64,000 nucleotides of DNA from Candidatus Aenigmatarchaeota archaeon. Lineage in GTDB: Archaea; Aenigmatarchaeota; Aenigmatarchaeia; PWEA01; JACQIF01. A program made the translations under genes and the position numbers. The notes under the pieces were generated by a model. It was given only the letters and a program-made list of their open reading frames with translations, did no database searches and had not been told where the DNA came from. The stretch is from positions 64,001 to 128,000 of the forward strand of contig CP066684.1 in the NCBI GenBank assembly GCA_016432325.1. Reading direction: 5' to 3'. Positions within the stretch are counted from its first letter, which is position 1. Each line of letters opens with the position of its first letter. This document shows, in pieces, positions 8,215-64,000 of this stretch.

Positions 8215-8685
8215 ATGAACCTGAAAAACCAGCGAAGGATGGCGGCAACGGTCTTGGACTGCGGCAACGACAAGGTATGGATGGACCCAGCGCATGAGGC
8301 CGACATAGCCCAGGCCATAACGCGCGCCGACGTGCGCCGGCTCCTGCTGAAGGGGTACATAAAGAGGGCGAAGGTCAACCTTCAGTCCCGCGGCCGCGCG
8401 CGCGTGCTGCGCCAGAAGAAGCTCAAGGGCCGCAGGAGCGGACCTGGCAGCAGGAAAGGCTCGGCTCTCGCAGGCATGACCAAGAAGCGCCGCTGGATAG
8501 GAACGATACGGCCGCTCAGAGTGCGTCTCCGCGAACTGCGAGACATAGGGGCCCTGAAGGAAGGTTCGTATCGCCACCTCTACCGCATGGCCAAGGCAGG
8601 CGCGTTCCGTTCAAAGTCGCACTTGAACCTGTACATAAAGGAGAAAGGTCTCATGAACGAGACGCCGAGCAAGAAGGTGAAGTAA
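8215..8685 (+). CDS. rpl19e: 50S ribosomal protein eL19
   Basis: MNLKNQRRMAA, KVWMDP, GPGSRKG. Confidence 0.96.
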   Translation: MNLKNQRRMAATVLDCGNDKVWMDPAHEADIAQAITRADVRRLLLKGYIKRAKVNLQSRGRARVLRQKKLKGRRSGPGSRKGSALAGMTKKRRWIGTIRPLRVRLRELRDIGALKEGSYRHLYRMAKAGAFRSKSHLNLYIKEKGLMNETPSKKVK

Positions 8686-39657: not shown

Positions 39658-39783
39658 TTACTGGTCCCTCCTCGCCTTTCCGAGTGTACGAGACTGCGGT
39701 CTCGACATGTTCGGCCGAGGGCCGAACTTTTCGAACCGCTGTTCGAAAATGTCGAAACTTTGTTTCGTACACGGTAAATCCAT
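39658..39783 (-). repeat. multibranch gene-start element
   Basis: TAAATGGA duplicated; four nested hairpins; 41-aa uORF ends in TAA abutting the ATG. Confidence 0.85.
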
Positions 39784-39787
39784 TTAA

Positions 39788-40186
39788 TCACTTTTTCGGT
39801 TTGGGACGGTCGGCCAACTCTTCCCTTACAATCGCTTTTACCTCTGTTTGCGTCGCATAGTGGGTGCGCAGGGGGCTGAGCAGGTCTATGTAGCTCTTGA
39901 ATTCCTCGAGATCCGAGCGAAGCGAGACCTTGTTCAAGAACTTCTTCGTGTTGGATACCTCTGTTTCCAGTTTCAAAATCTTGGTATTTAAATCTTCCAG
40001 AGCCTGCTCGAGCGCGCCGGCGCGCGTGCGCATCTCCTCGGTTCGCTTGAGGGAGGTGGTCTCGACGCTCATCTGTTTGGCTTCCATGCTGCGCGCAATC
40101 TCCTCGAGGTTGCGTATGCGGCGCATAGCCTCCTGCAGGACGCGGACGACTTCCCCAAAAGCCTCTTCGGCCGTGCGGGCGGCCAT
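39788..40186 (-). CDS. coiled-coil protein, probable pilus accessory
   Basis: 132-aa heptad-rich ORF; strong SD. Confidence 0.75.
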   Translation of the reverse strand: MAARTAEEAFGEVVRVLQEAMRRIRNLEEIARSMEAKQMSVETTSLKRTEEMRTRAGALEQALEDLNTKILKLETEVSNTKKFLNKVSLRSDLEEFKSYIDLLSPLRTHYATQTEVKAIVREELADRPKPKK

Positions 40187-40254
40187 TTACCGGTCCCTCC
40201 TCATGCTTCTAATAGGTAAATATGAAACGGCAGTTTCATGCATGTCCTTCCCAT
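40187..40254 (-). repeat. gene-start hairpin element
   Basis: ATGAAAC-TGCC-GTTTCAT; ATTTACC/GGTAAAT; 3' end GAGGAGGGACCGGTAAATGG. Confidence 0.75.
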
Positions 40255-44670: not shown

Positions 44671-44727
44671 ATGGCAGAAACAGATGTTTCGTATCTACAG
44701 CTCAGATACGCAAAGAGGGACCCGTAG
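44671..44727 (+). repeat. gene-start hairpin element before the tadC-like gene
   Basis: ATGGC duplicated; GAAAC/GTTTC and CGTATCT/AGATACG; GAGGGACCCGTAG-ATG. Confidence 0.8.
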
Positions 44728-49678: not shown

Positions 49679-51981
49679 GTAAAGCGCAGATAGCAGAGAT
49701 GACGTGGATAGCCATAGGCGGCATACTGATGGTCGCCCTCGTGTTGGGTTTGACCGTTTCTGCGATTCTGGCCGGCCAGGCAGGCGACGCAGAGGACGAG
49801 GCGATAGGAGTCAAGACCGCGCTCGACTACTCCGACGATTACGGCTCGCTCGCGGCTCGTTCGTCGCTGCACGGCTCGCTATACGAGAACGGTTTGAACG
49901 GCGGCTTCTACACCGCCGCGCCGCCTGCAGGCACGGAAACGATAGGCGGCGTTGCGTACGTCTACTGGAAGAGGGGAGACACTACAGGAGTCCCATCCGC
50001 AGGCACTATCACAAAAGAACTGCATGCGGGAACGCAAGCCCTTTTTTCAAGCCACATTTCAAATGAGGGCGTTGAACTGCGAACTCCTCCGGGAGCCGCA
50101 GTCGCGCTCGATCTGGACACGTCAGGAGTTTCTGGGGAGTTCCGTGCTGAAATCGTAGACCGCGGCAAGGCGCCTGCGATAAGGATAGGAGGCGACGGCC
50201 GCGTCGCCGAAACAGAGAGCGTCGCAGCCCGTTACCTGCGGCTGCGCAGGGTCGGCGAAATACTCACGCAGCACTCCTCGGGTCTCATCGATTCGCGCGT
50301 CCACGATGCCGTTCGGAGCGTTCAAGACCACCAGACGAACAGCGAGAGCACATGCGGACCTTCTTCATGTGACGCGTCGCTCAACTCCTGCGGCGGCCAG
50401 GACCGCTTGTGCCCGGGTAACCAGATAAGCGGAGACCCGCACGCGGCCGCGCAGAGCGCCGTTACGTCATTACAGAATGACTTGAACGCGCGGTTCGCGT
50501 CAGAGAACATCCGCTTCGAGATTTCAGTCGTGAAAAACGCCGTGAACAAAGTTCCGATAACGCATGTCGAGGACAACAGCGGCTCTGGAACGTACTATCG
50601 TTGGCATACGACTGAGACAGAGCCGGTCGAGACGTGCAGACCCGCAACGACAGCCGACAAATGCGCCAGCATAAAGGGCGCCGGCTGCTTGACGAGAAGT
50701 AAGTGTACTACGGAATCAGGCAAGCCGACGAGGACGCGCGAGTGCACAGGAGGGAAGGTGTGTTGCCTGCTGCCGCCAGAGACGTCGCCTCGCGTGTGCA
50801 CGACAGCTCCGGGATCCACGACTTCGGACTGTTCCGCGAACGCGGCATACGCATGCCCCTGCGCGTACTGCGCGAACGCGCATTATGATATGGCCTATCA
50901 GTACGACTACACAGTTCGCGTCAGCGTGATAGATTCGAATGTTCAACTACTGACAAAAGACGGCCTGCAGAATCCGAAGATGGTCTTCCTTGTGGAAGGT
51001 TTGCACGTAGACGACAACGCGTGCGGCAGCGACGGCCACGACTGCGGCGCGCCGTTTGCGTCCACCACGCCTCTGGAGTCGGAGACCGTGAACTCCATCG
51101 ATTGGCTTACAGGCGTCTCGGAGACGCCTACGTCTTCTGGAGAGATTCCTCCGGAACTCGGCGGTCCTGAAGACGCTGTGTGGTTCGCTTACAACAGCGA
51201 GTCTTACGCGTGCACTGACAACATCCCGCTCTCTGCCGCATACTTCCACGGCAACCGCACGGCGTTCTACGAAATCGGCTGGAGCTTCAACAACGACCAT
51301 CCGAAGACGGCGAACGTGACGGCCACAGTCGCCCGTTTCGACGCTCATTCCTGCAACAATTTCGCTTCCTCGACAGACATCCGCACAGCCGCGTTCCATC
51401 TTGGTTCAGCGCGTGCGGGCACCGCGAACTCGGGGCTCTACACGATACGGATGAGCGCCTCTGATCTCAACGCATACAGGGACGGCTACGTTGTGAAGGT
51501 CGCGGTGGATTTGTACGACTCGGATACAGGCGCGCGCCTGCTGCAGAACACTACAACAGGATACTACGCCGTCTTGCCTGTCCCGAATTCGGAGTACAAC
51601 GTCAGGTGGACCAACCACTCGGACGGCGTCGCGCACTTCTACAAGGGCTTCACGCAGTCAGGGACATGGAGCAGCGCTGCTGCTAGGTGCGATGCGGACG
51701 AGGCCAGCCTTGCAACAATAACAAACGACGAGGAGAACACGCGAGCGTTCCTCGCCGCAGGCGTGCCCTCGAGCGGCCGATATTGGATTGGGGCCACGGA
51801 TACGGCTGCAGAAGGAACGTGGATATGGGTTACAGGAGAGCTCTGGAGCTTCACGAAATGGGCAGGCGGGCCGAGCGCCGAGGACTGCGCCGCCCTGATA
51901 GGTTCTACGACCACGCAGGCCAGCTACTGGGAATCTCTGGGTTGCGGTGTGCCCCAGACGGGCTTCGTCTGCGAAAAGTAA
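49675..51981 (+). CDS. large pilin-like adhesin with Cys-rich region and C-terminal C-type lectin domain
   Basis: MSKA|QIAEM; TWSSAAARC, LATITN, YWIGATD, EGTWIW, FVCE. Confidence 0.85.
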   Translation: MSKAQIAEMTWIAIGGILMVALVLGLTVSAILAGQAGDAEDEAIGVKTALDYSDDYGSLAARSSLHGSLYENGLNGGFYTAAPPAGTETIGGVAYVYWKRGDTTGVPSAGTITKELHAGTQALFSSHISNEGVELRTPPGAAVALDLDTSGVSGEFRAEIVDRGKAPAIRIGGDGRVAETESVAARYLRLRRVGEILTQHSSGLIDSRVHDAVRSVQDHQTNSESTCGPSSCDASLNSCGGQDRLCPGNQISGDPHAAAQSAVTSLQNDLNARFASENIRFEISVVKNAVNKVPITHVEDNSGSGTYYRWHTTETEPVETCRPATTADKCASIKGAGCLTRSKCTTESGKPTRTRECTGGKVCCLLPPETSPRVCTTAPGSTTSDCSANAAYACPCAYCANAHYDMAYQYDYTVRVSVIDSNVQLLTKDGLQNPKMVFLVEGLHVDDNACGSDGHDCGAPFASTTPLESETVNSIDWLTGVSETPTSSGEIPPELGGPEDAVWFAYNSESYACTDNIPLSAAYFHGNRTAFYEIGWSFNNDHPKTANVTATVARFDAHSCNNFASSTDIRTAAFHLGSARAGTANSGLYTIRMSASDLNAYRDGYVVKVAVDLYDSDTGARLLQNTTTGYYAVLPVPNSEYNVRWTNHSDGVAHFYKGFTQSGTWSSAAARCDADEASLATITNDEENTRAFLAAGVPSSGRYWIGATDTAAEGTWIWVTGELWSFTKWAGGPSAEDCAALIGSTTTQASYWESLGCGVPQTGFVCEK

Positions 51982-52326
51982 TCACTTCGAGGACTCCACT
52001 TCCCTTGTCCTTCTTTCCAGAAGCTTCCTGCAGTCTTCCGTGGTGTCGCCTATTTCATTTATGAGCGTCTTTTGTGAAGGCGTCGCTGTGAATAAGACTT
52101 TTCTCAGAAGAGTGTCGTAAGTATTCAGCCACGTTAAACACCGTTTCGCCTTTGAAATGAATCCCCTCCTAATCTCTTTGGGTTCCCACGCTCTTGAGGC
52201 CTTTTCCAGATTCTCGTGGAACTCCCTCTCGTTCTCGCGGAATGACTCGACGCAACTGTCTATGTCTGTCTCCTTTTCTATGCCCTTTGAAGACGGTTTG
52301 CGTCCGAAGATGTTAAAAAGTCCCAT
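51982..52326 (-). CDS. hypothetical protein
   Basis: 114-aa AT-richer ORF. Confidence 0.55.
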   Translation of the reverse strand: MGLFNIFGRKPSSKGIEKETDIDSCVESFRENEREFHENLEKASRAWEPKEIRRGFISKAKRCLTWLNTYDTLLRKVLFTATPSQKTLINEIGDTTEDCRKLLERRTREVESSK

Positions 52327-52385
52327 AGACTCATATTGGCCGCGAACTATTTAAATACCGCCGCATAATTTCACGCGGTTCTTCC

Positions 52386-54074
52386 ATGGCCAAGGAGATA
52401 CTCGCGGCAATGATAGTCGCAATAATCCTCATGCTGCTCGCCGTGACGTCAGGCTCGCTGTTCGTTGCGGAGGGCCAGGCCAAGGGCACGGCCTCGCTGA
52501 CCATCGCCAACGAGGCTACGTGCGCGCTCGCTCCGTGGCTGCAGGAGTGCAAGGAACTTGAAGAGAAGAAGGCGCGGGAGGAGGCGACAAGCGACTTGCA
52601 GAACGTGTTTATTGCGGCCGCGACGGACGCTGATAACGTGGAGCGAGACGCGTACACATATTCTTATGCAAAAGGTGAGACAATTTCAACAGGCGTCATC
52701 AACGACGATGCGGCAATCAAGACGGGCTCTGCCGTGACGGTTGTGCCTTACGGCACGAACAGACTCTTTGTTGCGTATGCGAGGAAAAGTCAGAGCAACA
52801 CGAACGACGAGGGTTATTATTATAGCGCGTACACCGTGAATCAGGATGGTAGCATATCCCCTTCGGGAAACGGTGTGATAGACGATAGATGCGATATGCA
52901 ATCCGAGCCTGCTATGGACGCGGCCGCTTTCGATAGCAACTCCGACGGCACCATAGACGGCATACTCGTGGGGCTGACGTGCAACGGCGACGGGTACGAT
53001 AACAGCGACCAGAACGATAACAATGACGAGTATACTTTCTACCGATACGTCATCCAAGAGGACGGTTCTCTGACAAGGCAGGACGCGGGCTCCGACAGGG
53101 TACCATCTTTCGTCGCTGAGAATGCGGCACAGCAGCATATTTACATAAAACCTTCCATTACGATGACGGCGTTTAGTTCTGCAGGCGGCGCGCCGAACAA
53201 GGTCTTTATAGCATATGCACGGGAGGCGGATGGCGGAGGAAAGCCCATAGGATCGCCAGGAGACTACTATGCCTACAGAATCTACGATCCATCCAACCCG
53301 CCACCTGCCACGGCGAACGGCTGGCAGGCGGGATGGAGGAACCTACATACAGGGAAGACCAACGATCAGGCCGCAGGCTCCAAGCCCTGCAGCTTGGGCA
53401 GCGGAAGTACGATAGACTCCGCGCTTTACACAGATAACGCCGCCAATTCCGTAATAGTCGCTTATGCGTGCATATCGGACAACAACAAGGACGGCGGGAA
53501 CGACAACTACGAATACAGAATATACAGCAGCGGCGCAGAGAACATTCAGGGCGTAAAGCCGTTGTCAGATGCCCGACAGATAGAAACGTCTCTAGATTTC
53601 ACAGCCGCCCCCGAAGATCGCGCTAACAGAGTCCATACGATAGCGGTTGCGAGAATCGGACATAGAAAATCCTTTGTCGTTTATACGGAAACGATAAGTA
53701 ATCGTAATGGCAACGGTCCCGGACGCTACAAATATCGGGTTATCGATAACGGAGTGCTGACGCCAGAAGGTGACGCGCCAGACCTGCACGGTGGGGACTG
53801 CCACATATGGGATCCAAACGAGGATCTCTCCGGAGCGGGACCAAAAAAACAGCGAGGCGGAGCCTCGGTAAGCCTGTCGTATGACGTGCAGGGAAATAAG
53901 GTCGTCGCAATATACTCTTGTGATTCTGACGGCAAAGGTTCGCAGGACTCCTACAGCTACGCAATCTATAATGTCGCCACAAATGTTATAGAGAAGAGAG
54001 GCTATGCCATAACTCCTGCACAATTGGACAACGGCCCGTCAGTCGCGAGCGTCTACGTGCCAGGAGGCGGCTAG
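52386..54074 (+). CDS. secreted repeat protein (possible beta-propeller)
   Basis: N-terminal TM; repeated hydrophobic-VAY(A/S)C...Y-x-YRIY units. Confidence 0.75.
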   Translation: MAKEILAAMIVAIILMLLAVTSGSLFVAEGQAKGTASLTIANEATCALAPWLQECKELEEKKAREEATSDLQNVFIAAATDADNVERDAYTYSYAKGETISTGVINDDAAIKTGSAVTVVPYGTNRLFVAYARKSQSNTNDEGYYYSAYTVNQDGSISPSGNGVIDDRCDMQSEPAMDAAAFDSNSDGTIDGILVGLTCNGDGYDNSDQNDNNDEYTFYRYVIQEDGSLTRQDAGSDRVPSFVAENAAQQHIYIKPSITMTAFSSAGGAPNKVFIAYAREADGGGKPIGSPGDYYAYRIYDPSNPPPATANGWQAGWRNLHTGKTNDQAAGSKPCSLGSGSTIDSALYTDNAANSVIVAYACISDNNKDGGNDNYEYRIYSSGAENIQGVKPLSDARQIETSLDFTAAPEDRANRVHTIAVARIGHRKSFVVYTETISNRNGNGPGRYKYRVIDNGVLTPEGDAPDLHGGDCHIWDPNEDLSGAGPKKQRGGASVSLSYDVQGNKVVAIYSCDSDGKGSQDSYSYAIYNVATNVIEKRGYAITPAQLDNGPSVASVYVPGGG

Positions 54075-54380
54075 ATGTCCCGCAAAGGACTCGAACTGCC
54101 GACCAACACTCTCATAGTCATGGCCGTCGCAATCGTGGTACTGCTGGTCATGATAGTGTTCTTCACCAGCTCGTCGCAAACGTCCACCGGCGCCACAGAA
54201 CTGCAGAACCGCTTCCGTTCGGAATGCGTGACGTTCGTCAGCAGGAACTGTTGCGTGTCCGGGACGGACGTCACGTCCGGCACGTGCGACGCGTCTGCCG
54301 TGGCGCCGAGCGCAGGACTGGCCATCGGAACGACGGACGACACAAAGATAAAAGAGGCATGCTGCATAATCAAGCCATAG
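54075..54380 (+). CDS. class III signal peptide pilin, 6-Cys family
   Basis: RKG|LELPTN; C..CC..C..CC. Confidence 0.8.
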   Translation: MSRKGLELPTNTLIVMAVAIVVLLVMIVFFTSSSQTSTGATELQNRFRSECVTFVSRNCCVSGTDVTSGTCDASAVAPSAGLAIGTTDDTKIKEACCIIKP

Positions 54381-54388
54381 GTGTTTGG

Positions 54389-54682
54389 ATGTCAAAGAAA
54401 GGAATCGAACTGCCGGTGAACGCGCTGATAATCATGTTCCTGGCCGTGGTAGTTCTTGCCGGAGTCATCGCGATATACACGGGTGTCTGGCAGCCGTCCC
54501 AAAAGACGACGACGCAGGCCTCGGATTTCAACGCCGAATGCGCGAAGTACTCGGCTATTGGATGCTGTGGTGACGATACGCTGTCTGGATGCTCCACGCA
54601 GAAGAGCCAGGTCGTGAGCAAAGCATCGACGTTGGGAATAACGAGCGCGGCAGACGCCGTCAAGCGCTGCTGCGGCGAGTGA
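54389..54682 (+). CDS. class III signal peptide pilin, 6-Cys family
   Basis: KKG|IELPVN; C..CC..C..CC. Confidence 0.8.
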   Translation: MSKKGIELPVNALIIMFLAVVVLAGVIAIYTGVWQPSQKTTTQASDFNAECAKYSAIGCCGDDTLSGCSTQKSQVVSKASTLGITSAADAVKRCCGE

Positions 54683-54686
54683 TACC

Positions 54687-55019
54687 ATGGACAACAAGGG
54701 AGCTGAGATAGCGGTCAATGCCGTGATAGTCATGGTGCTCGCGGTGCTGGTTCTGGGAGCGGCCATAGGAATCTTCACAGGAGTCTGGAACCCGGGCAAG
54801 AAGACCACAGAAGGCATAGGCGACTTCAGCTCCGCGTGCGGCTCTTTCGCGGCAGCCGGATGCTGCAGGGACCCGCCTGCGGGCGGCTCTCTGCCTGCGA
54901 CGTGTACGGACACCGCAACAGCCGGCACGCTGGCCAAGAAGCTGCTCGATGCGGCAGGCGGCTTGGGTCTTTCTGCGACAGATTTCCCCGCGGCAAAGGA
55001 AAGGTGCTGCAAGGGCTAG
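54687..55019 (+). CDS. class III signal peptide pilin, 6-Cys family
   Basis: NKG|AEIAVN; C..CC..C..CC. Confidence 0.8.
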   Translation: MDNKGAEIAVNAVIVMVLAVLVLGAAIGIFTGVWNPGKKTTEGIGDFSSACGSFAAAGCCRDPPAGGSLPATCTDTATAGTLAKKLLDAAGGLGLSATDFPAAKERCCKG

Positions 55020-55130
55020 ATTTGGGCGCAGACAACCCCACCAAAACCTTTAAAAAGACCTGTGTGGAACAGAAAGCAGTAAAATTGAAGGGTGTAATAC
55101 TCTGGTTTTACGTTAAGGAGTTGACAATCG

Positions 55131-55200
55131 ATGCCTGAAATTTCCGAAACAAGTTTCGTCATTCCAGCCATGGGAGGTTTGAGATATGCCTGAAATCCCC
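55131..55200 (+). repeat. gene-start element at psmA, 67/70 identical to 60374-60443
   Basis: ATGCCTGAAAT duplicated at both ends. Confidence 0.92.
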
Positions 55201-55902
55201 GGAATGGGAAAACTGGGATACGACCGCGCAATAGTCACGTTCAGCCCCGATGGACGACTATTCCAAGTCGAGTACGCACGAGAGGCAGTTAAGAGAGGTT
55301 CGACTGCCGTAGGAATCACATTCAATGGCGGAGTCGTTCTGGCTTCCGTTCGCCTTGCAGACCCGCTGAGCGCGTCAGGCACCACGAACGAGAAGATACA
55401 GCAGGTAGACGATCACATAGGAATCGTTGCAGCGGGGCTCCTCGGAGACGCGCGCGTGCTCGTCGACAAGGCCCGCGTCAAGTCGCAGGTTCACAGAATA
55501 ACATATGACGAATCGATAGACGTTCCGGGTCTCGTCCGCTTCCTCGCCGACCTCAAGCAGGCTCACACGCAGTATGCCGGTCTGCGTCCGATGGGAGTAT
55601 CGTTCCTGATAGGAGGCGTCAACGATAATGCGTATCTGTTCGAAACCGATCAGGGCGGCTCGATATTCCAGTGGAACGCGCACGTCATAGGAAGAGGCGC
55701 GGACATCGTGCGCAAGGGATTGGAGAAGGACTGGAAGGCGGGCATGGACAGGAAGACTGCCATAGACGTCGCCGTACGCACGCTGAAGAAGGCCGAGAAA
55801 GACATATCGAAAGACAACATAGAAGTCGTAGTCGTCGACAAGGCAAAGGGATTCCAGAAGCTGTCTGGAAAGGACAGAACCGAGGCCTTGAAGAGTTGGT
55901 GA
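55186..55902 (+). CDS. psmA: proteasome alpha subunit
   Basis: GYDRAIVTFSPDGRLFQVEYA. Confidence 0.97.
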   Translation: MPEIPGMGKLGYDRAIVTFSPDGRLFQVEYAREAVKRGSTAVGITFNGGVVLASVRLADPLSASGTTNEKIQQVDDHIGIVAAGLLGDARVLVDKARVKSQVHRITYDESIDVPGLVRFLADLKQAHTQYAGLRPMGVSFLIGGVNDNAYLFETDQGGSIFQWNAHVIGRGADIVRKGLEKDWKAGMDRKTAIDVAVRTLKKAEKDISKDNIEVVVVDKAKGFQKLSGKDRTEALKSW

Positions 55903-56020
55903 GAAAATAGCATGCAGCCAAAGCGCCATTCCTTCTGTGGGTATCGGCGCGGAGGCAAAACGTAAAAACGAAACGCACGAAGCGTTTCAATCTTGCCGCG
56001 TTATGCGGCAAAGTGATTCG

Positions 56021-56719
56021 ATGGTAAGCACGGAGAAAGCGGTTGTTGCACGTCTAGAGTCACACGGGAAAAAGTTCGAGATACTCGTCGATCCGGACGC
56101 AGCGGTTCGGGTCAAGAAGGGAGACGACGTCACGGTCAAAGACCTCGTGGTGTATGAAAACGTCTACGAGGATGCAAAGAAGGGTACGCGGCACACCGAC
56201 GCGGACGTGCGTGCCGTGTTCGGCACGCAGGACTTCAAGGAGATCGCGTACCGCATAATCCGCAAGGGCGAAGTGCAGTTAACGACCGACCAGCGGAGGA
56301 AGATGAAGGAAGCGAAGGTCCTCGAAATTGCGGCGCTGATATCCAAGCGCGCCGTCGATCCGAAGACCAAGGCGCCCCATCCCGCGCAGAGAATCATAAA
56401 CGCGATGGAGCAGGCTCACGTGAATGTGAACGAATACGAGCCGGCCGTGTCGCAGGTGGAGCGCGTGATAGACGCGTTGCGGCCGATACTGCCGTTGAGC
56501 GTGGAACAGCTGGACTTGCAGGTTCGCATCCCGGCGTCGTACGTGGGAAAAGCGTACGGCCGCGTGCGCGATTTCGGCCACCTGAAAAAAGAGGAGTGGC
56601 GAAGCGACGGCTCATGGGTCGGCACGGTGGAAATTCCCGCCGGCATGCAGGGAGACTTCTACAGTCTCCTGAGCGGCCTGACTCACGGGGAAGGAGAGGC
56701 AAAGCCTCTCGCAAAATAA
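56021..56719 (+). CDS. ribosome maturation factor SBDS/Sdo1
   Basis: KFEILVDP, VDPKTKAPHP, IPAGMQ. Confidence 0.95.
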   Translation: MVSTEKAVVARLESHGKKFEILVDPDAAVRVKKGDDVTVKDLVVYENVYEDAKKGTRHTDADVRAVFGTQDFKEIAYRIIRKGEVQLTTDQRRKMKEAKVLEIAALISKRAVDPKTKAPHPAQRIINAMEQAHVNVNEYEPAVSQVERVIDALRPILPLSVEQLDLQVRIPASYVGKAYGRVRDFGHLKKEEWRSDGSWVGTVEIPAGMQGDFYSLLSGLTHGEGEAKPLAK

Positions 56720-56745
56720 CGATCAAAACACGAGGTGTATGAAAG

Positions 56746-57492
56746 ATGAATGGAACTATGGAAGAGAACGTGGAGAGCGCGCCGGCGCCTATGGATCCCG
56801 GAAGCGTTCTGATTGCAAGCAACAAGAGTATCGTCGTACCGGGCGAGCTCATCGCCAAAGGCGTTGACTTCTTGCCGGGCAGCGGCACGTATAAGGAAGC
56901 CGGAGAAGTGCGCTCGAAGGTTCTGGGCCTCGTCCGCATAAAGAGCGACAGGCTCATCAGCGTCGTCCCTCTTTCTGGCCAGTACATGCCTTTCGCAGGC
57001 GACGGAGTGATCGCAGTCATCGCGGACGTTCAGATATCGTCCTGGATGGCCGACGTCAACGCGCCTTACGTGGCGTTCTTGTCGCTCTCCGAGGGCGTAG
57101 AGGAGTACGTCGACTTGCAGAAGTCTGACCTCACGCACTACTACGACGTGGGCGACGTGATATACGCCAAGGTGCTGAGCGTTTCGAAACGCAAGGACGT
57201 GAAGCTCACGATGAGAGATCGCATGTGTCGCAAACTTCACGGCGGCAACACGATGAAAATAACGCCGACGAAGGTCCCGCGCCTGATAGGCAAGGGCGGT
57301 TCGATGATAGAACTGATAAAGCAGAAGACCGGATGCCACATAATCGTCGGCCAGAACGGCCTGGTCTGGATAAAAGGAGAAAAACAGGATCTGGCCGCGG
57401 AAGCCGTGCTGCTCGTTGAACGCGAGAGCCACGTGGAAGGGCTGACGGATCGCATGACGGCCTTTCTCGATTCGATACAGCAGGTGATATGA
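56746..57492 (+). CDS. rrp4: exosome RNA-binding subunit Rrp4
   Basis: IVVPGE, S1 domain, KH motif KVPRLIGKGGSM, GQNG. Confidence 0.95.
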   Translation: MNGTMEENVESAPAPMDPGSVLIASNKSIVVPGELIAKGVDFLPGSGTYKEAGEVRSKVLGLVRIKSDRLISVVPLSGQYMPFAGDGVIAVIADVQISSWMADVNAPYVAFLSLSEGVEEYVDLQKSDLTHYYDVGDVIYAKVLSVSKRKDVKLTMRDRMCRKLHGGNTMKITPTKVPRLIGKGGSMIELIKQKTGCHIIVGQNGLVWIKGEKQDLAAEAVLLVERESHVEGLTDRMTAFLDSIQQVI

Positions 57493-57493
57493 T

Positions 57494-58264
57494 ATGAGCG
57501 AAGAACACAAGAAGATTATTGTTGGAGACAGAAGGCCCGACGGCCGCGCACTCGACGAGATGAGACCCATAACAGCCAAGGCGGGCGTGATTTCGCGCGC
57601 CAACGGCTCCGCGCATTTCGCCATGGGCAGTACCGTCGCAATCGCCGCGGCATACGGCCCGCGCGAGCTGCACCCCAAACACCTGCAGGACCCGGTCCGT
57701 GCGTATCTCAAGTACGTCTACGCCATGGCGCCGTTCTCCACGCAAGATCGCGTAAAGCCCGGCCCGTCAAGACGCTCGACTGAGATAAGCGAAGTCTCTC
57801 GACAGGCGTTCAACTCCGTGATATTCCTGGAGGAGTTCCCCAAGGCAGGGATTGAAGTCTTCGTCGAGATACTGCAGGCCAACGCCTCGACGCGATGCGC
57901 AGGAATAAACGCCGCGTCAATCGCGCTCGCCGACGCAGGCGTGCCGATGACCGATCTCGTATCCTCCTGCGCCGCAGGCAAGGTCGACGGAAAGATAATC
58001 CTGGACGTCGCGGGAGAGGAAGACACGGAAGGAGAAGTGGACATGCCGATAGCGTACATACCCCGCAAGGACGAGATCGCGCTGCTCCAGATGGACGGCC
58101 TGCTGACTCTCGACGAGTTTAAGGAGGCGCTTGAACTGGCGAAGAAAGGCTGCATGCAGATACACGAAAAGCAGGTGGCCGCGCTGAAGGAGCGCTACGT
58201 GCGCGTCGCCTCTGAGATAGCGAAGAAGGGGCCTGTGCGCGAGAGCGCAGAAGAGGTGGCTTAA
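57494..58264 (+). CDS. rrp41: exosome exonuclease Rrp41
   Basis: RPDGR, YGPRE, PSRRSTEIS. Confidence 0.96.
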   Translation: MSEEHKKIIVGDRRPDGRALDEMRPITAKAGVISRANGSAHFAMGSTVAIAAAYGPRELHPKHLQDPVRAYLKYVYAMAPFSTQDRVKPGPSRRSTEISEVSRQAFNSVIFLEEFPKAGIEVFVEILQANASTRCAGINAASIALADAGVPMTDLVSSCAAGKVDGKIILDVAGEEDTEGEVDMPIAYIPRKDEIALLQMDGLLTLDEFKEALELAKKGCMQIHEKQVAALKERYVRVASEIAKKGPVRESAEEVA

Positions 58265-58320
58265 ATGATAACCAAAATCTTGAAACTCTGTTTCAAATTT
58301 TCGTACCAGAGGTGGATGAT
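58265..58320 (+). repeat. gene-start hairpin element before rrp42
   Basis: ATGATAAC(C/G)AAAATC duplicated (14/15); TTGAAAC-TCT-GTTTCAA. Confidence 0.88.
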
Positions 58321-59109
58321 ATGATAACGAAAATCGACAAGGAATTCATAAAAACGCTCGCCCGCGAAGGCAAGCGCGAAGACGGCCGCGCGTTCGACCA
58401 GTTCCGCGACCTGAAAATCGAGACGGGCTTCGCCAAGAACGCAGAAGGCTCGGCGCTCGTGACTCTCGGAGAAACGCGCGTGCTCGCAGGCGTGAAGCTT
58501 TCGGTCGGAACGCCGTTCGCCGACACGGCGAACGAGGGCGTGCTGATGGTGAACGCAGAGCTTGGCCCGAAGGCTTCGCCTGAATTCGAGACAGGCCCTC
58601 CGAAAGAAGGAGCCATCGAACTGGCCCGCGTCATAGACCGCGGCATCCGCGAATCGAAGTGCATCGATCTGGAAGCGCTTTGCATCACGCCGAAGGAAAA
58701 GGTCTGGATGGTGTCGGTGGATATAGACCCGATAAACGACGGCGGGAACATACTGGACGCCGCAGGCATAGCCGCGATTGCCGCACTGCACGACGTCAAG
58801 ATACCGAAACTCGACGAGGATGTAAGACCAATATTCGGCACGAACTCGGGAAAGCTCAAGCTGCGTCACATACCGATACCCGTCACGACATTCAAGGTCA
58901 ACGGGGCGCTCGTGATGGACCCTGACTTCGAGGAAGAAGCGTCTGCCGAGGCGCGTCTGACCGTGACGAGCGTCGAGGGTTTCCTCTGCGCGATGCAGAA
59001 GGGCGGCGAGAGCAACTTCAAGACAGAAGAGGTAGTGCGTGCCGCAGAGACGGCGTACGCCAAGGCGACGGAACTGCGTGAAGTCGTAAAACAGGCCGTC
59101 GGCCTTTGA
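58321..59109 (+). CDS. rrp42: exosome subunit Rrp42
   Basis: REDGR, AEGSALV, ELARVIDRGIRES. Confidence 0.96.
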   Translation: MITKIDKEFIKTLAREGKREDGRAFDQFRDLKIETGFAKNAEGSALVTLGETRVLAGVKLSVGTPFADTANEGVLMVNAELGPKASPEFETGPPKEGAIELARVIDRGIRESKCIDLEALCITPKEKVWMVSVDIDPINDGGNILDAAGIAAIAALHDVKIPKLDEDVRPIFGTNSGKLKLRHIPIPVTTFKVNGALVMDPDFEEEASAEARLTVTSVEGFLCAMQKGGESNFKTEEVVRAAETAYAKATELREVVKQAVGL

Positions 59110-59179
59110 CGTTTTACACTTCCCGCAGGAAGCTGTATATGCTTAAATAGCCTACATTGAAACAGAATCACGTGATGAT

Positions 59180-59434
59180 ATGCCGGCCAAGAAGATAGGC
59201 TCTGCAGGACGCTTCGGTTCGCGCTACGGACGCAAACTGCGCAAGGACGTCTCTGATATTGAGGCCGTTCAGCGCGCTTTCCACGAATGTTCGTCGTGCC
59301 GCAAGGTCGCGGTCAAGCGCGTTGCGTTCGGAATCTGGCAGTGCCGCTCGTGCAATCGCAAGTTCGCCGGAGGCGCGTTCAAGCCTCAGGCCCATCCTTT
59401 CAAAGAGACGATACAGAAAGCGGCGGGTGCGTAA
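59180..59434 (+). CDS. rpl37ae: 50S ribosomal protein eL43 (L37ae)
   Basis: GRFGSRYG, CxxC...GIWQCxxC, FAGGAF. Confidence 0.96.
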   Translation: MPAKKIGSAGRFGSRYGRKLRKDVSDIEAVQRAFHECSSCRKVAVKRVAFGIWQCRSCNRKFAGGAFKPQAHPFKETIQKAAGA

Positions 59435-59435
59435 T

Positions 59436-59576
59436 ATGCCTTACAAATGCCTTTCGTGCAGGAAAGAAATATCGACAGAAGACGTGAAGAAGCGCGTGCG
59501 CTGCCCGTACTGCGGCTACAGGATTCTCGTCAAGACGCGCGCGGCCGTGAAAACAGTGCACCTCAAGACTGGTTAG
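59436..59576 (+). CDS. rpoP: RNA polymerase subunit Rpo12 (P)
   Basis: YKCLSC...RCPYCGYRILVK. Confidence 0.93.
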   Translation: MPYKCLSCRKEISTEDVKKRVRCPYCGYRILVKTRAAVKTVHLKTG

Positions 59577-60066
59577 CCTTCACGGTCAGCACCGCTTTCA
59601 AAACGCCTGACGACGGCCAATACGATTTTACTTCGAAGTCCGTGTCCATCTCGAATTCCGGAGAAGTCCACTCGCTCTGAGGCGGAACCTTCGGAGAATT
59701 GAACTTTGCGCTTTTGAAGTCCAGACCGCCATAATAAACGTCTTCGGTCGTCTTGAACTTTATTTTTGCCTTCGTCTGTGCTATCGTGATGCTCGAGATG
59801 CGCGTGCCGTCCTCCCTGTAGAAGCCGTTGTCGTCTGCGAGGACCGTGTACGTCACGGTCTCGGGAGGCTGTTGCTCCTGTTGGGTCCGATTCTGTTCCA
59901 CCAGAGGTTCCTGCGGCGTTGTGTTCTGCTGCGCGGTTTCGTTGGCCATTTCCTGCTGTTCTATCTCTCCAGCGGCGTCTTGCCGAGCCTCTTCGCTCGG
60001 CGTCTGGTAGCCGCCTGTGCAGCCTGCCACGAGAACCAGAAGTGCAATAAAGGCGAGCTTGTTCAT
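59563..60066 (-). CDS. putative lipoprotein
   Basis: MNKLAFIALLVLVAG|C lipobox, Gln-rich linker. Confidence 0.75.
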   Translation of the reverse strand: MNKLAFIALLVLVAGCTGGYQTPSEEARQDAAGEIEQQEMANETAQQNTTPQEPLVEQNRTQQEQQPPETVTYTVLADDNGFYREDGTRISSITIAQTKAKIKFKTTEDVYYGGLDFKSAKFNSPKVPPQSEWTSPEFEMDTDFEVKSYWPSSGVLKAVLTVKANQS

Positions 60067-60114
60067 ACGCCACGTTGGCAAGCCCTATATAAAAAACCCG
60101 CGCGTACCAAACGC

Positions 60115-60333
60115 ATGCGCGCGACACTTGAGATAAAGACGAAGCATCCGAAGGCCGTTCTGGAAGCGATAGCCGTGGACGAAGAGACGTCGAAGCGCGT
60201 TCGCATCAGGCCAGGCGCGAAGGACGGCGTGTTGCGCGTTGTCATAGAGGCCGACGACTTCTCTGCGTTGCGCGCCGGCGTGACGACTTACATGCGTTTG
60301 GCCAAGGCAGCGCTTGCGGGTCTGGGCGAGTGA
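60115..60333 (+). CDS. pcc1: KEOPS complex subunit Pcc1
   Basis: IEADDFSALRAGVTTYMRL; position between rpoP and prefoldin. Confidence 0.85.
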   Translation: MRATLEIKTKHPKAVLEAIAVDEETSKRVRIRPGAKDGVLRVVIEADDFSALRAGVTTYMRLAKAALAGLGE

Positions 60334-60373
60334 TTTCCCGAACGTATAAATAGCTGCATATTCGTTTCGTTTT

Positions 60374-60443
60374 ATGCCAGAAATTTCCGAAACAAGTTTC
60401 GTCATTCCAGCCATGGGAGGTTTGAGACATGCCTGAAATTCCC
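60374..60443 (+). repeat. gene-start element at pfdB, 67/70 identical to 55131-55200
   Basis: direct sequence comparison. Confidence 0.92.
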
Positions 60444-60794
60444 CAGCAAGCGCAGCAGATGATAATGCAACTGCAGGCCGCGCAGCAGCAGTTGCAGGCG
60501 TTCGCCATGCAGAGGCAGTCGCTCACCATGCAGAAGCACGAGATTGAAAAGGCGACAGAAGAACTCACGAGCGCGAACGACAAGGAAGACGTCTACAAGC
60601 TATCCGGTCCCATAATGGTCCGTTCGACAAAATCAAAACTTCTGGACGAACTCAAGGAGCGCATAGCAAAGATAGATTCCGGAATCAAGCGGCTTGAAGA
60701 CCACGAGAAGAAGATAGCCGAAAAGGCGCAGGAGAACCAGACCAAGCTCGAAAAGATGTTTGCCCCGCCTGAAACCAAGGGACAGGCCGGTTAG
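60429..60794 (+). CDS. pfdB: prefoldin beta subunit
   Basis: coiled coils flanking VYKLSGPIMV. Confidence 0.93.
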   Translation: MPEIPQQAQQMIMQLQAAQQQLQAFAMQRQSLTMQKHEIEKATEELTSANDKEDVYKLSGPIMVRSTKSKLLDELKERIAKIDSGIKRLEDHEKKIAEKAQENQTKLEKMFAPPETKGQAG

Positions 60795-60835
60795 GCGCCC
60801 GATTTGTTTATTAATAAACCCGGACCATTCTAACC

Positions 60836-61177
60836 ATGGCTCTCGTGCTGGACCCGCTGACGCTGGGCGACACTCTCTCGGCGATAATACTGATAATCGC
60901 GGCCGTCATAAACTGGAAAGTATTCCACATGTACTACAAGTCTGCGGTAAAGCCGAAGGGCAGGTACTTCCTGACCCTCGGGCTTCTGCTGTTTGCCATA
61001 CTCAACCAGGGCGTCGCAGTCATACTGGTTTACAGCGGACTCGTCACCATAGAACTGACAAACACGAACCAGGCCGCTTACATAGTCTTCGTGCTGCTCA
61101 AGTCGGTGGGACCGATAGTGATATTTTACGCGAGCCTCCTGATGTATCAGGAAGCGAAGAGGCTTATCGTGGTCTAG
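60836..61177 (+). CDS. small membrane protein
   Basis: 3 hydrophobic segments. Confidence 0.65.
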   Translation: MALVLDPLTLGDTLSAIILIIAAVINWKVFHMYYKSAVKPKGRYFLTLGLLLFAILNQGVAVILVYSGLVTIELTNTNQAAYIVFVLLKSVGPIVIFYASLLMYQEAKRLIVV

Positions 61178-61545
61178 CCGCTCAGCAGCGCATAGTATTT
61201 CTCGACGGCACGACGGTCTATCTTCTTGTCGAAGAACGCGTGCGGCCGCGTCGCTCCGGAAAAAGTCTTGGGGATGTGGAGAAGTTCGTGTATCAGCGTC
61301 TTTGTCTGTTCCTCGAAGGACTGCTTGTCGAAATGTTCTGACAGCACTTCGATCACGTAGTGCGGACGCACGGCAAGCGCCTTCTGCCACACGCGCGGCA
61401 AAGACCATATCCGCGCGTACGCGCGCGCTTTCGAGCCGTGCGAACGGAAGCACTTGATGCGGAAGGGGTCCACGTGCTTCAGGTCGAGACGGTTCACAAG
61501 AGTATGCACGCGCGCTTCTATGTCCTCTGCTTTTTCGAATCTCAC
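61174..61545 (-). CDS. putative metallopeptidase
   Basis: HELLH motif, YARIW, YVIEV. Confidence 0.82.
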   Translation of the reverse strand: MRFEKAEDIEARVHTLVNRLDLKHVDPFRIKCFRSHGSKARAYARIWSLPRVWQKALAVRPHYVIEVLSEHFDKQSFEEQTKTLIHELLHIPKTFSGATRPHAFFDKKIDRRAVEKYYALLSG

Positions 61546-62138
61546 AGTATCTCCTCCGCTATTTCGAGCAGCCCGCGCAGGCTGTCTATGGCGTAGTCGG
61601 CCTTGTATTCGTTCTTCTCGGGTTCGACGAGATGGAACACCGTTGTCATTCCAAGGTCTTTCGCGGTTTCAAGATTCTCCTGCCTGTCGTCCACGAAAAC
61701 GCATTCGCTGGCGTTGACGCCTAGGGCCGCGCATGCCTTTCTGTAAATCGCAGCGTCCGGTTTCGCGCTCTTCACCTCCTCGCTGATTACCACGGCTTCG
61801 AACGCGTCCGCAATGCCGAAGCGCTTCAGCAGGGAGCGCAGGAGGAACGCGTCCGCGTTGGAGACGATGGCTATCGCATAGTTCTTCTTCAGCTCTTCAT
61901 GGACTGCTTTGAAGTCCGCGTCGAGTTTGAAGGTTTCGATGAGTCTCTGTTCGATACGCGCGTGGTCTTTGACGCCCATCTTTTTCCAGAACGCCTCGCG
62001 CGTGAGCTCGCCGCGCTCGTACGACTGGTAAATGGGCCTCACGCCGGCCATGTCCTTCTTCAGGAAAGCCGCGATCGTGTTTGTTATGTAGCGGGGCTGC
62101 GCTATCACTCCGAAGAAGTCCAGCAGGATCGCTTGCAT
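61542..62138 (-). CDS. HAD-superfamily hydrolase
   Basis: LLDFFGV, SNAD, KPDAAIY, FVDDRQEN. Confidence 0.9.
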   Translation of the reverse strand: MQAILLDFFGVIAQPRYITNTIAAFLKKDMAGVRPIYQSYERGELTREAFWKKMGVKDHARIEQRLIETFKLDADFKAVHEELKKNYAIAIVSNADAFLLRSLLKRFGIADAFEAVVISEEVKSAKPDAAIYRKACAALGVNASECVFVDDRQENLETAKDLGMTTVFHLVEPEKNEYKADYAIDSLRGLLEIAEEIL

Positions 62139-62170
62139 ACGCGTGTTTCCGCGCGCGAGGATAAATCCGT

Positions 62171-63178
62171 TTAGTCGTGCACGAGAGGCGCAATCTTGCG
62201 CGGTTCAAAGCCGTTGCCGTTGGTGGTGTCCTTGTGTCTAATTTCCACCCACCCCGCGACGCGCTCGGCAATAGCATCTGGAGTGAAGCCGGCCTTGCGG
62301 TACAGGTCTTTCGGCGAGCCGGTCTCCCCCTTCTCGGCCCCTATTCTGCGCATGTGGGTCGGATACCTCTCCGAAAGCACGTCAGATACACTGCTCCCCA
62401 GCCCGCCGTCTATGCTGTGGTCTTCTGCTGTTACGACAAGACCGGTCTTCCTTGCATACTGTTCGATAAGCAAAGAGTCTATCGGTTTTATGGACGAGAT
62501 GTTTATCACCGCCGCACTCACGCCAGATCCCTCCAGCAGTGCTGCGGCTCCCAGCGACGGTTCTATCAGCGCCCCATAGCTCATTATCGCTACGTCGTCG
62601 CCGTCGCGAAGCACCTCGCCCTTTCCTATAGACCATTCCCAGTTGTCGTCGTGCAACGTCAATACTTCTGCGCGGGTCATGCTCATCGTCGCGGGTCCCG
62701 CGTATTTCGGGTCTTTTACGTTTGCGAGTTTGACTGTCATCTGTTTCGCTTCAACCCAGTCCGCCGGGCATAACACGGTGTCCGAGATCGCCTTGTTGTA
62801 TGATAGATAGTTGAGAACCTGGTTGCTCACGCCGTCTTGTCCGACCTGCAAGCCGACATGGCTGCCTACCTTGCAGACGTTGAGCTTCGCGCGCCTGACT
62901 ATCTGTTCGAACGGTTCGGCGGCGAGTTTGGAGAATCCCTCGAAGGTGGCGTAATAGACGCGTTCGCCTGTACGATGCGCCGCACCAGCCGCCATTGTGA
63001 CGCTGTCCTGTTCCGCTATGCCCGCATCAACGATGCGCCGCGGGTACTGTGCAGCGAAGTCCGCGAGGGACATGGAATTGCCAAGGTCCGATACGTAAAC
63101 GCGGATATTGTGCGTCTTGGCCGCTTCCACAGCGCCCCGACCGAGGCCGCTTCTCATCGATTCGTGCTGGCCCTTCAT
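62171..63178 (-). CDS. transketolase C-terminal (pyrimidine-binding/C) subunit
   Basis: GIAEQ, GQDGVSNQ, SIKPID, AEDHSIDGGLG. Confidence 0.93.
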   Translation of the reverse strand: MKGQHESMRSGLGRGAVEAAKTHNIRVYVSDLGNSMSLADFAAQYPRRIVDAGIAEQDSVTMAAGAAHRTGERVYYATFEGFSKLAAEPFEQIVRRAKLNVCKVGSHVGLQVGQDGVSNQVLNYLSYNKAISDTVLCPADWVEAKQMTVKLANVKDPKYAGPATMSMTRAEVLTLHDDNWEWSIGKGEVLRDGDDVAIMSYGALIEPSLGAAALLEGSGVSAAVINISSIKPIDSLLIEQYARKTGLVVTAEDHSIDGGLGSSVSDVLSERYPTHMRRIGAEKGETGSPKDLYRKAGFTPDAIAERVAGWVEIRHKDTTNGNGFEPRKIAPLVHD

Positions 63179-63372
63179 GCGCGACTCCCTCCTTCTCCGC
63201 GCTGCACGGGAACCGCAGTCCCCGGCATTTTCGAACAGCGGTTCGAAACTTTACGAATAGCTATTCGTAAACTTGCGACCGCGTCGCAAGAGTTCGACCG
63301 AAGGCCGAACATGTCGGGAAGCTCCACTTCCCGTACAGGGAAGGATGAAACCGCGTGTTTCGTGCCCTTCAT
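63179..63372 (-). repeat. 194-bp multibranch element between the transketolase subunit genes
   Basis: ATGAAGGGC 9-bp direct repeat; seven hairpins; shares modules with the 39658 element. Confidence 0.9.
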
Positions 63373-64000
63373 AGTATCCCCTTGTTGACAAGCCGCCTGC
63401 GGAACTTCTCCTTACCGATATTGGTTTCTATCATGGCCTCTTCCATCTCCCTGTCGTCCAGACAGCGGCCGTGATATTTCGCGCCGCCCTTCTGCATGAA
63501 TCTGACGCCGCTTCCTTTGATCGTATTGGCGACTATTGCTTTCGGTCCTTTCTCGCGCACCCACGCCCAATCCAGCGCGTGCTTTATCTCGCCGTAGTTA
63601 TGGCCGTTTATCTGCATAGTCCTCCAGCCGAATGAGTCGAGTTTCATGTCCAACGGCTCCATATCCTTCGTGCGCCGCGTGAAGTCATCGTTCTGCGCTC
63701 CGTTCTTGTCTACCCATAGAATCGTTTCGAGCTTGTAGTGCGCGGCTGTCGCGACGGCTTCCCACACCTGTCCCTCATTCATCTCGCCATCTCCGACGAT
63801 TGCGATGACGTGCGGTCTCTTCATGGGATTTTTGATTTCGTCGCGCAGAGTGTGCTCAATGCCGTTCGCGAACGAAAGACCCTTGCCCAGACTGCCCGAC
63901 GGGAACTCGACTCCGGGCGTGGTCGTGTCGGCGTGGCCCGGCAATCCCCCGAGGGTGCGGAATGTAGGAAGAGAGCCATAGGGAATGTATCCCTGATGCG
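63369..64000 (-). CDS. transketolase N-terminal (TPP-binding) subunit, 5' partial
   Basis: LPGH, SGSLGKG, GDGEMNEGQVWEA, TIKG; frame stays open to the window end. Confidence 0.93.
   Translation of the reverse strand, partial: HQGYIPYGSLPTFRTLGGLPGHADTTTPGVEFPSGSLGKGLSFANGIEHTLRDEIKNPMKRPHVIAIVGDGEMNEGQVWEAVATAAHYKLETILWVDKNGAQNDDFTRRTKDMEPLDMKLDSFGWRTMQINGHNYGEIKHALDWAWVREKGPKAIVANTIKGSGVRFMQKGGAKYHGRCLDDREMEEAMIETNIGKEKFRRRLVNKGIL

Follow-up and report, generated by a model that had tools for sequence, protein, structure and literature searches.

The proteasome alpha subunit gene (psmA) and the prefoldin beta gene (pfdB) of Candidatus Aenigmatarchaeota archaeon (GenBank assembly GCA_016432325.1) both begin within an almost identical block of 70 nt, which raises the question of how two gene starts came to share it. 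Both genes lie in a stretch of 64,000 nt (contig CP066684.1, positions 64,001 to 128,000), termed the window here; coordinates refer to the window, and features are on its + strand unless stated otherwise. A preliminary description had proposed either recent copying that transferred N-terminal codons, with prefoldin as the likelier source, or a co-regulating leader such as an RNA thermometer. The analysis reported here favors a different origin, namely, that the block represents a 55-nt member of a family of target-copying hairpin elements, inserted 11 nt into the gene and copied from psmA into pfdB. A probability of about 0.7 is given to this reading as a whole.

The duplicated start at psmA and pfdB

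The two blocks, at 55131-55200 and 60374-60443, were identical at 67 of 70 positions when aligned, as had been described. In both cases the identity starts with the first base of an ATG and ends 15 nt inside the psmA or pfdB coding sequence. The differences fall at element positions 6, 55 and 67. The first of these, in an upstream open reading frame (uORF), and the third, in the main reading frame, are synonymous in their own frames, in line with the preliminary description, while the middle one exchanges Tyr and His in the uORF. Whole-genome BLAST and short-word BLAST detected only these two copies in the 874,869-bp single-contig genome. Each block contains an internal direct repeat of 11 nt, exact at psmA (55131-55141 and 55186-55196) and nearly so at pfdB (60374-60384 and 60429-60439). 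The layout is, therefore, an 11-nt repeat, 44 nt and a second 11-nt repeat, i.e., a 55-nt insert with a duplicated start. The insert comprises, in order, a 4-nt linker, a hairpin tip of the form GAAAC-loop-GTTTC, an imperfect inverted copy of the start, the sequence GGAGG and the second copy of ATGCCTGAAAT. The 11-mer also occurs at genome position 480619, inside a gene, where no insert accompanies it.

At psmA (55186..55902; Pfam Proteasome and Proteasome_A_N), the first direct repeat (55131..55141) corresponds to the putative ancestral start codon plus 8 nt and now forms the start of a 20-codon uORF (55131..55193), whose TGA overlaps psmA codons 2 and 3, 5 nt downstream from the A of the main ATG. 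The tip, GAAAC-AA-GTTTC (55146..55157), is the signature of the family described below and lies within a palindrome (55145-55158) with a predicted fold of a 5-bp stem and a 4-nt loop. It is followed by the inverted start copy, or anti-target (55161..55171), which complements repeats 1 and 2 at 9 of 11 positions, including the psmA-type position 6, and which is paired with 55131-55141 in the predicted fold. The GGAGG ribosome-binding site borne by the insert (55173..55177) stands 8 nt ahead of the predicted working ATG, which opens the second direct repeat (55186..55196), as supported by sequence and alignment. A TATA-like box upstream (55049..55056) aligns with a motif in a same-genus genome, and similar motifs are present in order-level relatives; as a putative promoter element, its position would imply a native 5′ untranslated region ahead of the ancestral start.

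The pfdB gene (60429..60794; Pfam Prefoldin_2) has the same arrangement. Its first direct repeat (60374..60384), the putative ancestral start, keeps a pfdB-type A at position 6 and opens a 20-codon uORF (60374..60436), whose TGA has the same offset from the main ATG. The tip (60389..60400; palindrome, 60388-60401) is identical to that of psmA and has the same predicted fold. The inverted start copy (60404..60414) is of the psmA type and is mismatched to pfdB repeat 1 at position 6, and the predicted hairpin is weaker at pfdB (−3.3 kcal/mol) than at psmA (−5.0 kcal/mol). The GGAGG of the insert (60416..60420) is also separated by an 8-nt spacer from the ATG of the second direct repeat (60429..60439), the predicted working start, which has a psmA-type T at position 6. 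This T indicates that repeat 2 would have been imported rather than duplicated from the pfdB target. A TATA box (60345..60352) is found 21 nt ahead of the ancestral ATG, and the same motif with the same spacing is present in the same-genus genome. Because of this spacing, the ancestral pfdB mRNA was probably leaderless. The uORF, palindrome, GGAGG and shared MPEIP N-terminus listed for both genes in the preliminary description all agreed with the translations and the sequence.

Both loci, with both flanks, were covered by contigs from four public groundwater runs belonging to one study; all four are DNA runs, and no RNA run was listed as containing the stretch. A 48-nt exact core (55137-55184) formed a separate unitig in these runs at approximately twice the depth of its flanks, indicating that the repeat is real and not an assembly artefact. 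The public-run contigs contained neither an empty-site allele nor a 5.2-kb deletion joint between the copies; as contigs drop rare variants, they are uninformative on absence. The unitigs break at the 48-nt core and several copies in the same-genus genome are located at contig ends; elements this short can fragment assemblies.

The source genome (labelled G000) was compared with the same-genus genome (G001) and with 40 relatives. The PsmA and PfdB proteins of G001 are 81% and 60% identical, respectively, to those of G000. At both genes, G001 exhibited a clean gap of 55 nt, with the upstream DNA aligning as far as the upstream ATG; the upstream ATGs at 55131 and 60374 are therefore taken to be the ancestral starts. 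The upstream ATG of psmA follows a native ribosome-binding region, and the alignment with G001 takes in both this region and the ATG. PsmA and PfdB of G000 both start MPEIP. In G001, which has no element at these genes, the proteins start MAEIPGMGK and MAEIPPQAQQ, respectively, and more-distant relatives have MEI[MI]PD for PsmA and M.E.(I/V)SPEAQ for PfdB. Both genes, hence, appear to begin natively with M-x-E-I-P and no N-terminus seems to have been transplanted. The proposal that MPEIP was native to prefoldin and was passed to the proteasome gene, for which a comparison of these N-termini in relatives had been suggested, is not sustained by these proteins.

Searches beyond this genome gave no further copy. 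BLAST searches of the 40 relatives with the leader returned only chance-level short matches, exact-word scans of genome and metagenome contig collections did not find the core, metagenome loci fetched with Rrp41 included none closer than G001, and two genome-contig loci fetched with PsmA had no element. The element was missing at psmA and pfdB in the congener, in all 40 relatives and in the metagenome loci.

A genome-wide hairpin micro-insertion family

The tip is a recurrent motif of this genome. GAAAC-N2-6-GTTTC was present at 59 places in G000, compared with 4 for the reversed pattern and 1 to 22 for permuted 5-mers, and the motif was likewise enriched in G001 (18 versus 3) and certain further genomes belonging to the class. 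At least 20 tips lie 19 to 43 nt ahead of a gene start with a ribosome-binding site. Direct repeats of at least 9 nt were found around 15 of the 59 tips but at only 2.5% of 3,000 random places, and the repeat period was 51 to 57 nt in 11 of these 15 (55 nt at psmA and pfdB). Among family members, the target repeat ranges in length from 3 to 29 nt. In most cases, the stretches immediately 5′ and 3′ of the tip are inverted complements of each other, and the extended stems had a mean energy of −13.1 kcal/mol versus −9.8 kcal/mol for flanks re-paired between sites (Mann-Whitney p = 1e-7). The psmA/pfdB element has all of the family features, with a tip 4 nt after the repeat, an inverted copy matching at 9 of 11 positions, GGAGG and a period of 55 nt. 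A 55-nt insertion with the architecture of this family is present at both genes and absent from the congener. A second subtype consists of a conserved 57-nt unit situated just ahead of the native ATG, and larger mosaics also occur.

Gain and loss between the two congeners was examined by comparison with the whole of G001. The element was missing at the matching G001 start in every informative case (13 genes: psmA, pfdB, rrp42 and ten others, including those for L19e, ASCH, Pop5, FKBP, L1, a PilB-like ATPase, SMC and histone). Conversely, G001 holds copies missing from G000, for example, ahead of S10. At the start of the L44e gene, both congeners carry an element, in different versions and in tandem in G001 (L235, G001:C59 about 1500-1700). 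The repeats and inverted copies at L44e match each species' own, differing, N-terminal codons; either the element co-evolves with the host start or this site has been hit repeatedly. An independent family element is found at the pfdB start of G019 (L056:1394-1540), a genome placed in a different family within the order; its 13-nt repeat is of the junction between ribosome-binding site and start, its tip is the same, an inverted copy is present and the period is 53 nt.

Four further members are present in the window. One (58265..58335) is located at the rrp41/rrp42 junction of the psmA-pfdB operon and has a 15-nt repeat of the rrp42 start, a tip at 58282-58294 and a period of 56 nt; it is missing in G001. 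A large mosaic member (63170..63372, − strand) lies 5′ of the gene for the transketolase C-terminal subunit and contains a 9-nt start repeat, a tip at 63347 and more hairpins. Two 57-nt members of the conserved subtype (40187..40243, − strand, and 44671..44727, + strand) are each positioned just ahead of a gene of a pilus locus. The genes between the psmA and pfdB copies form a conserved archaeal exosome cluster, identified with Pfam as SBDS, Rrp4, Rrp41, Rrp42, L37ae, a small zinc-ribbon gene and Pcc1. Within this cluster, pcc1 and the small zinc-ribbon gene flank a 172-aa open reading frame on the − strand (59563-60081) without a Pfam match, whose N-terminus resembles a signal peptide with a lipobox. 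The zinc-ribbon gene of order-level relatives is directly 5′ of pfdB. Other recurrent hairpins, such as TTCGAAC..GTTCGAA and GGGAAG..CTTCCC, were observed in mosaics (63170-63372 and 39700-39850), and one mosaic hairpin also occurs 5′ of the prefoldin alpha gene (G000:C1 about 8300-8440). G000 seems to hold several merging hairpin families.

Copying between the two genes and alternative explanations

The psmA and pfdB sites were the top-scoring pair among all tip sites, with a score of 62.5 compared with 43 for the next true pair, and the AA loop was found only at these two of the 59 tips. These two results indicate that the 70-nt blocks are, as judged from sequence, copies of each other rather than parallel products. 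The idea of recent copying in the preliminary description was, to this extent, borne out, as the blocks are far more alike than any other related pair and the copied block takes in the opening 11 nt of each present coding sequence. The direction of copying was examined at position 6, which is natively T in psmA (GCT in G001) and natively A in pfdB (GCA in G001). T is found in the downstream repeat of each element and is the base that each inverted copy complements, A being confined to the upstream repeat of pfdB. The psmA-type base in these parts of both elements points to formation of the unit at psmA and subsequent copying into pfdB, a direction that is moderately supported at best and is opposite to the one suggested earlier, with prefoldin as the source.

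The element would, on this evidence, most likely have formed at psmA, and the whole unit would then have been copied into pfdB by a homology-dependent step, either through general recombination on short homology or by an element-specific process. Such copying would have been possible because both genes natively began ATGCCNGAAAT. The insert is presumably tolerated since the gene start is rebuilt and the protein is unchanged. The old ATG would now open a 20-codon uORF ending on the new start, with translation of the main gene from the downstream ATG by means of the ribosome-binding site of the insert. The uORF of pfdB probably begins at the 5′ end of the transcript, and that of psmA would follow the native leader; ribosomes may either stop at the overlapping TGA and re-initiate or load directly at the GGAGG of the insert. 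More generally, the family may be described as target-copying hairpin micro-insertions of approximately 53 to 57 nt, mostly at translation starts, that appear to be gained and lost between related genomes.

Several observations weigh against this explanation. Codon 2 (55134 and 60377) has shifted alike in both genes, from Ala (GCN) in G001 to Pro (CCN) in G000, and this difference is present in the upstream and downstream repeats alike; the shared change could reflect coincidence or a wider or patchy exchange between the two starts. The direction of copying depends on one nucleotide position, read in three places per element. The likeness of the ribosome-binding segment of the insert to that of native psmA reached only the 92nd percentile and was not significant, and neither was the complementarity of the insert to psmA-specific downstream sequence. 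The extended stems of psmA (−6.2 kcal/mol) and pfdB (−4.0 kcal/mol) are among the weakest of the family, indicating that these two hairpins are degenerate members. No Y1 transposase, TnpB or Cas1 was detected in the genome, other enzyme families not having been searched. Finally, use of the downstream ATG as the start codon is something that we infer.

The element could instead have arisen at pfdB and then been copied to psmA, or both copies could derive from a lost third one. The blocks differ at only 3 of 70 positions, so that polarity comes from a single site, and the N-terminus resembles those of other prefoldin beta proteins. An origin at pfdB is nevertheless hard to reconcile with the psmA-type base in the downstream repeat and the inverted copy of both elements, and the native pfdB upstream region had no ribosome-binding site to duplicate; for a lost source, no third copy remains in the genome. 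These histories are considered improbable.

A second alternative is that the block is a selected co-regulatory leader, acting as an RNA thermometer or uORF attenuator and tying expression of the proteasome to that of prefoldin. Both genes belong to protein quality control, the uORF stop overlaps the main start, and the minimum-energy folds pair GGAGG partly with codons 3 to 6 (−11.5 and −11.7 kcal/mol). However, fold z-scores were only −0.4 to −1.6, no better than those of shuffled sequences, and no Rfam match was obtained at E values up to 1 over positions 50000-64000. The features expected of an RNA thermometer or structured leader, namely, a stable, conserved fold occluding the ribosome-binding site and retention of the leader in relatives, were not found, given these z-scores, the Rfam result and the absence of the element at these genes from relatives. 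Copies before other quality-control genes, for which a search had been proposed, were missing at the thermosome, psmB and prefoldin alpha genes. The same architecture was instead observed ahead of functionally unrelated genes; the host genes of the family include those for L19e, L7Ae, L1, S12, Pop5, FKBP, ThrRS, LysRS, SMC, histone, Rrp42 and HerA-like and PilB-like ATPases, a diversity that had been named beforehand as telling against regulation. The uORF stops of the family are scattered from −20 to +16 around the main start, so that coupling is possible but is not a precise, shared family feature. Nothing indicates a selected regulatory role, and the co-regulating leader is regarded as quite unlikely.

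In a third alternative, translation begins at the upstream ATG and the 55 nt never reach the protein, being lost from the RNA as an intron cut by the splicing endonuclease or passed over by the ribosome in bypassing of the type seen in T4 gene 60. The identical 11-mers 55 nt apart could act as take-off and landing sites, with a hairpin after the first and a sequence resembling a ribosome-binding site before the second. Archaeal bulge-helix-bulge introns have two 3-nt bulges separated by a 4-bp helix. A scan of lengths from 50 to 60 nt detected no such motif with the right geometry for a 55-nt excision, and a weak candidate of 51 nt, shared by both copies, would create a stop. Bypassing in T4 gene 60 involves matching take-off and landing codons, a stop immediately after the take-off codon, a take-off hairpin and a signal in the nascent peptide. 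Matching codons and a weak hairpin are present at psmA and pfdB, but there is no stop codon after the would-be take-off codon. Furthermore, removal is unnecessary, given that an ATG and a well-spaced GGAGG are supplied with the downstream copy. The chance that either process accounts for the block is judged to be very small.

Frame-breaking hairpin inserts in the conserved 5′ part of psmA on related metagenome contigs hint at removal of this kind in the group. Here, one or two hairpin inserts of approximately 20 to 32 nt, with lengths that are not multiples of three, break up psmA close to its 5′ end (L098:1500-1640, L112:2830-2960 [= L113], L093:470-640, L108:2740-2900, L109:2840-3010 and L114:400-560). 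Some lie inside the conserved YDR..FSPDGRLFQVEYA region, and the rest of the reading frame is intact. The inserts of L108 and L109 occupy the same site and the stem is kept through compensatory changes, including a G-U pair. Unless such inserts are taken out or passed over, these psmA genes should be defective, as judged from their reading frames. On inspection, a bulge-helix-bulge motif, matching take-off and landing codons and a slippery frameshift site all failed to fit.

Two independent de novo insertions, alike only through a shared 11-mer target, would be expected to be partly similar, as the repeats and inverted copy are built from the target, but the identity extends to target-independent parts (the 8-nt spacer, the linkers and the AA loop, which occurs nowhere else) and much lower similarity is seen between other family members whose targets resemble each other, making this explanation scarcely credible.

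Spread of the element and relation to known systems

The variable repeat length (3 to 29 nt), the constant period and the site-specific inverted copy are a poor fit to a cut-and-paste transposase. We propose, as a hypothesis, short-homology copying between gene starts, all of which share a ribosome-binding site and an ATG, with template switching in the hairpin later correcting the inverted copy to the new target. The family would then spread by copying guided by base pairing or homology and without a dedicated transposase, the element's own repeat and anti-target choosing a site of the same sequence; this extension of the proposal is speculative and rather unlikely. If it were true, psmA and pfdB would represent one case caught in mid-move, with an imported start, the same 11-mer and an uncorrected mismatch, and the frame-breaking psmA inserts in sister lineages would mean that such inserts can be disregarded by the RNA or the ribosome. 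The element itself appears to be largely selfish or neutral.

A literature search found no description of such elements in archaea, and known systems resemble this one only in part. Mycobacterial interspersed repetitive units (MIRUs; Supply et al. 1997, as summarised in PMC3184786) are repeats of about 40 to 100 bp, present in tens of copies at gene junctions within transcription units. According to that summary, MIRUs are, like the element described here, missing from the matching site in a related species and carry a small open reading frame that overlaps neighbouring genes, so that translation can pass on. The overlap of the uORF stop with the main start at psmA and pfdB corresponds to this coupling of a small reading frame to flanking genes; the likeness is one of working only. 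There is no sequence relation, MIRUs have short, fixed direct repeats and tandem arrays, and they are not reported to have an inverted target copy or a rebuilt start.

Yeast mitochondrial GC clusters (GC42; PMC4478555) and fungal mitochondrial double-hairpin elements are likewise gene-less hairpin inserts of approximately 40 to 60 nt. The GC clusters also exhibit rapid gain and loss between close relatives, mosaics, and mobilisation in which homologous recombination is implicated (PMC4478555). GC42 differs in that its target duplication has a fixed length of 2 nt and its body is conserved (PMC4478555), whereas the element described here has variable repeats of 3 to 29 nt and target-derived stems, is positioned at translation starts and brings in a ribosome-binding site. 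In phage T4 gene 60, the coding gap of 50 nt is now seen, according to a preprint (bioRxiv 10.1101/2022.08.31.505936), as a mobile-element insertion. As described there, it is also a coding insert of approximately 50 nt with matching flanking codons, a 5′ hairpin and a sequence resembling a ribosome-binding site before resumption; gene 60 differs in needing a stop after the take-off codon and in having no second start codon. The insert at psmA and pfdB brings a full start, so that ordinary initiation suffices. Classical MITEs (miniature transposable elements with inverted repeats) are similarly small, non-autonomous and multi-copy, with filled and empty sites between relatives. In contrast to these, the 55-nt unit ends without terminal inverted repeats, has no target duplication of fixed length (the repeats range from 3 to 29 nt) and has no cognate transposase among those searched. 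The combination of target-derived stems and a rebuilt start is found in none of the compared elements (MIRUs, GC clusters and the T4 gene 60 insert).

The leader shared by psmA and pfdB would thus be the footprint of a very small selfish DNA and not the signal of a proteostasis regulon. Insertion at translation starts, with reconstruction of the start, may be what allows such an element to persist in a reduced genome dense with genes, and this would explain many of the odd leaders with a duplicated start and a uORF in this archaeon. For annotation, the first in-frame ATG of such a gene may be a decoy. The psmA/pfdB pair would be a rare, polarised example in which a whole unit, including the start codon, was copied between genes sharing 11 bases. 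If the mechanism is guided by homology or base pairing, it would represent a new, transposase-free way for DNA to spread and could provide a route by which leaderless genes gain leaders with a ribosome-binding site.

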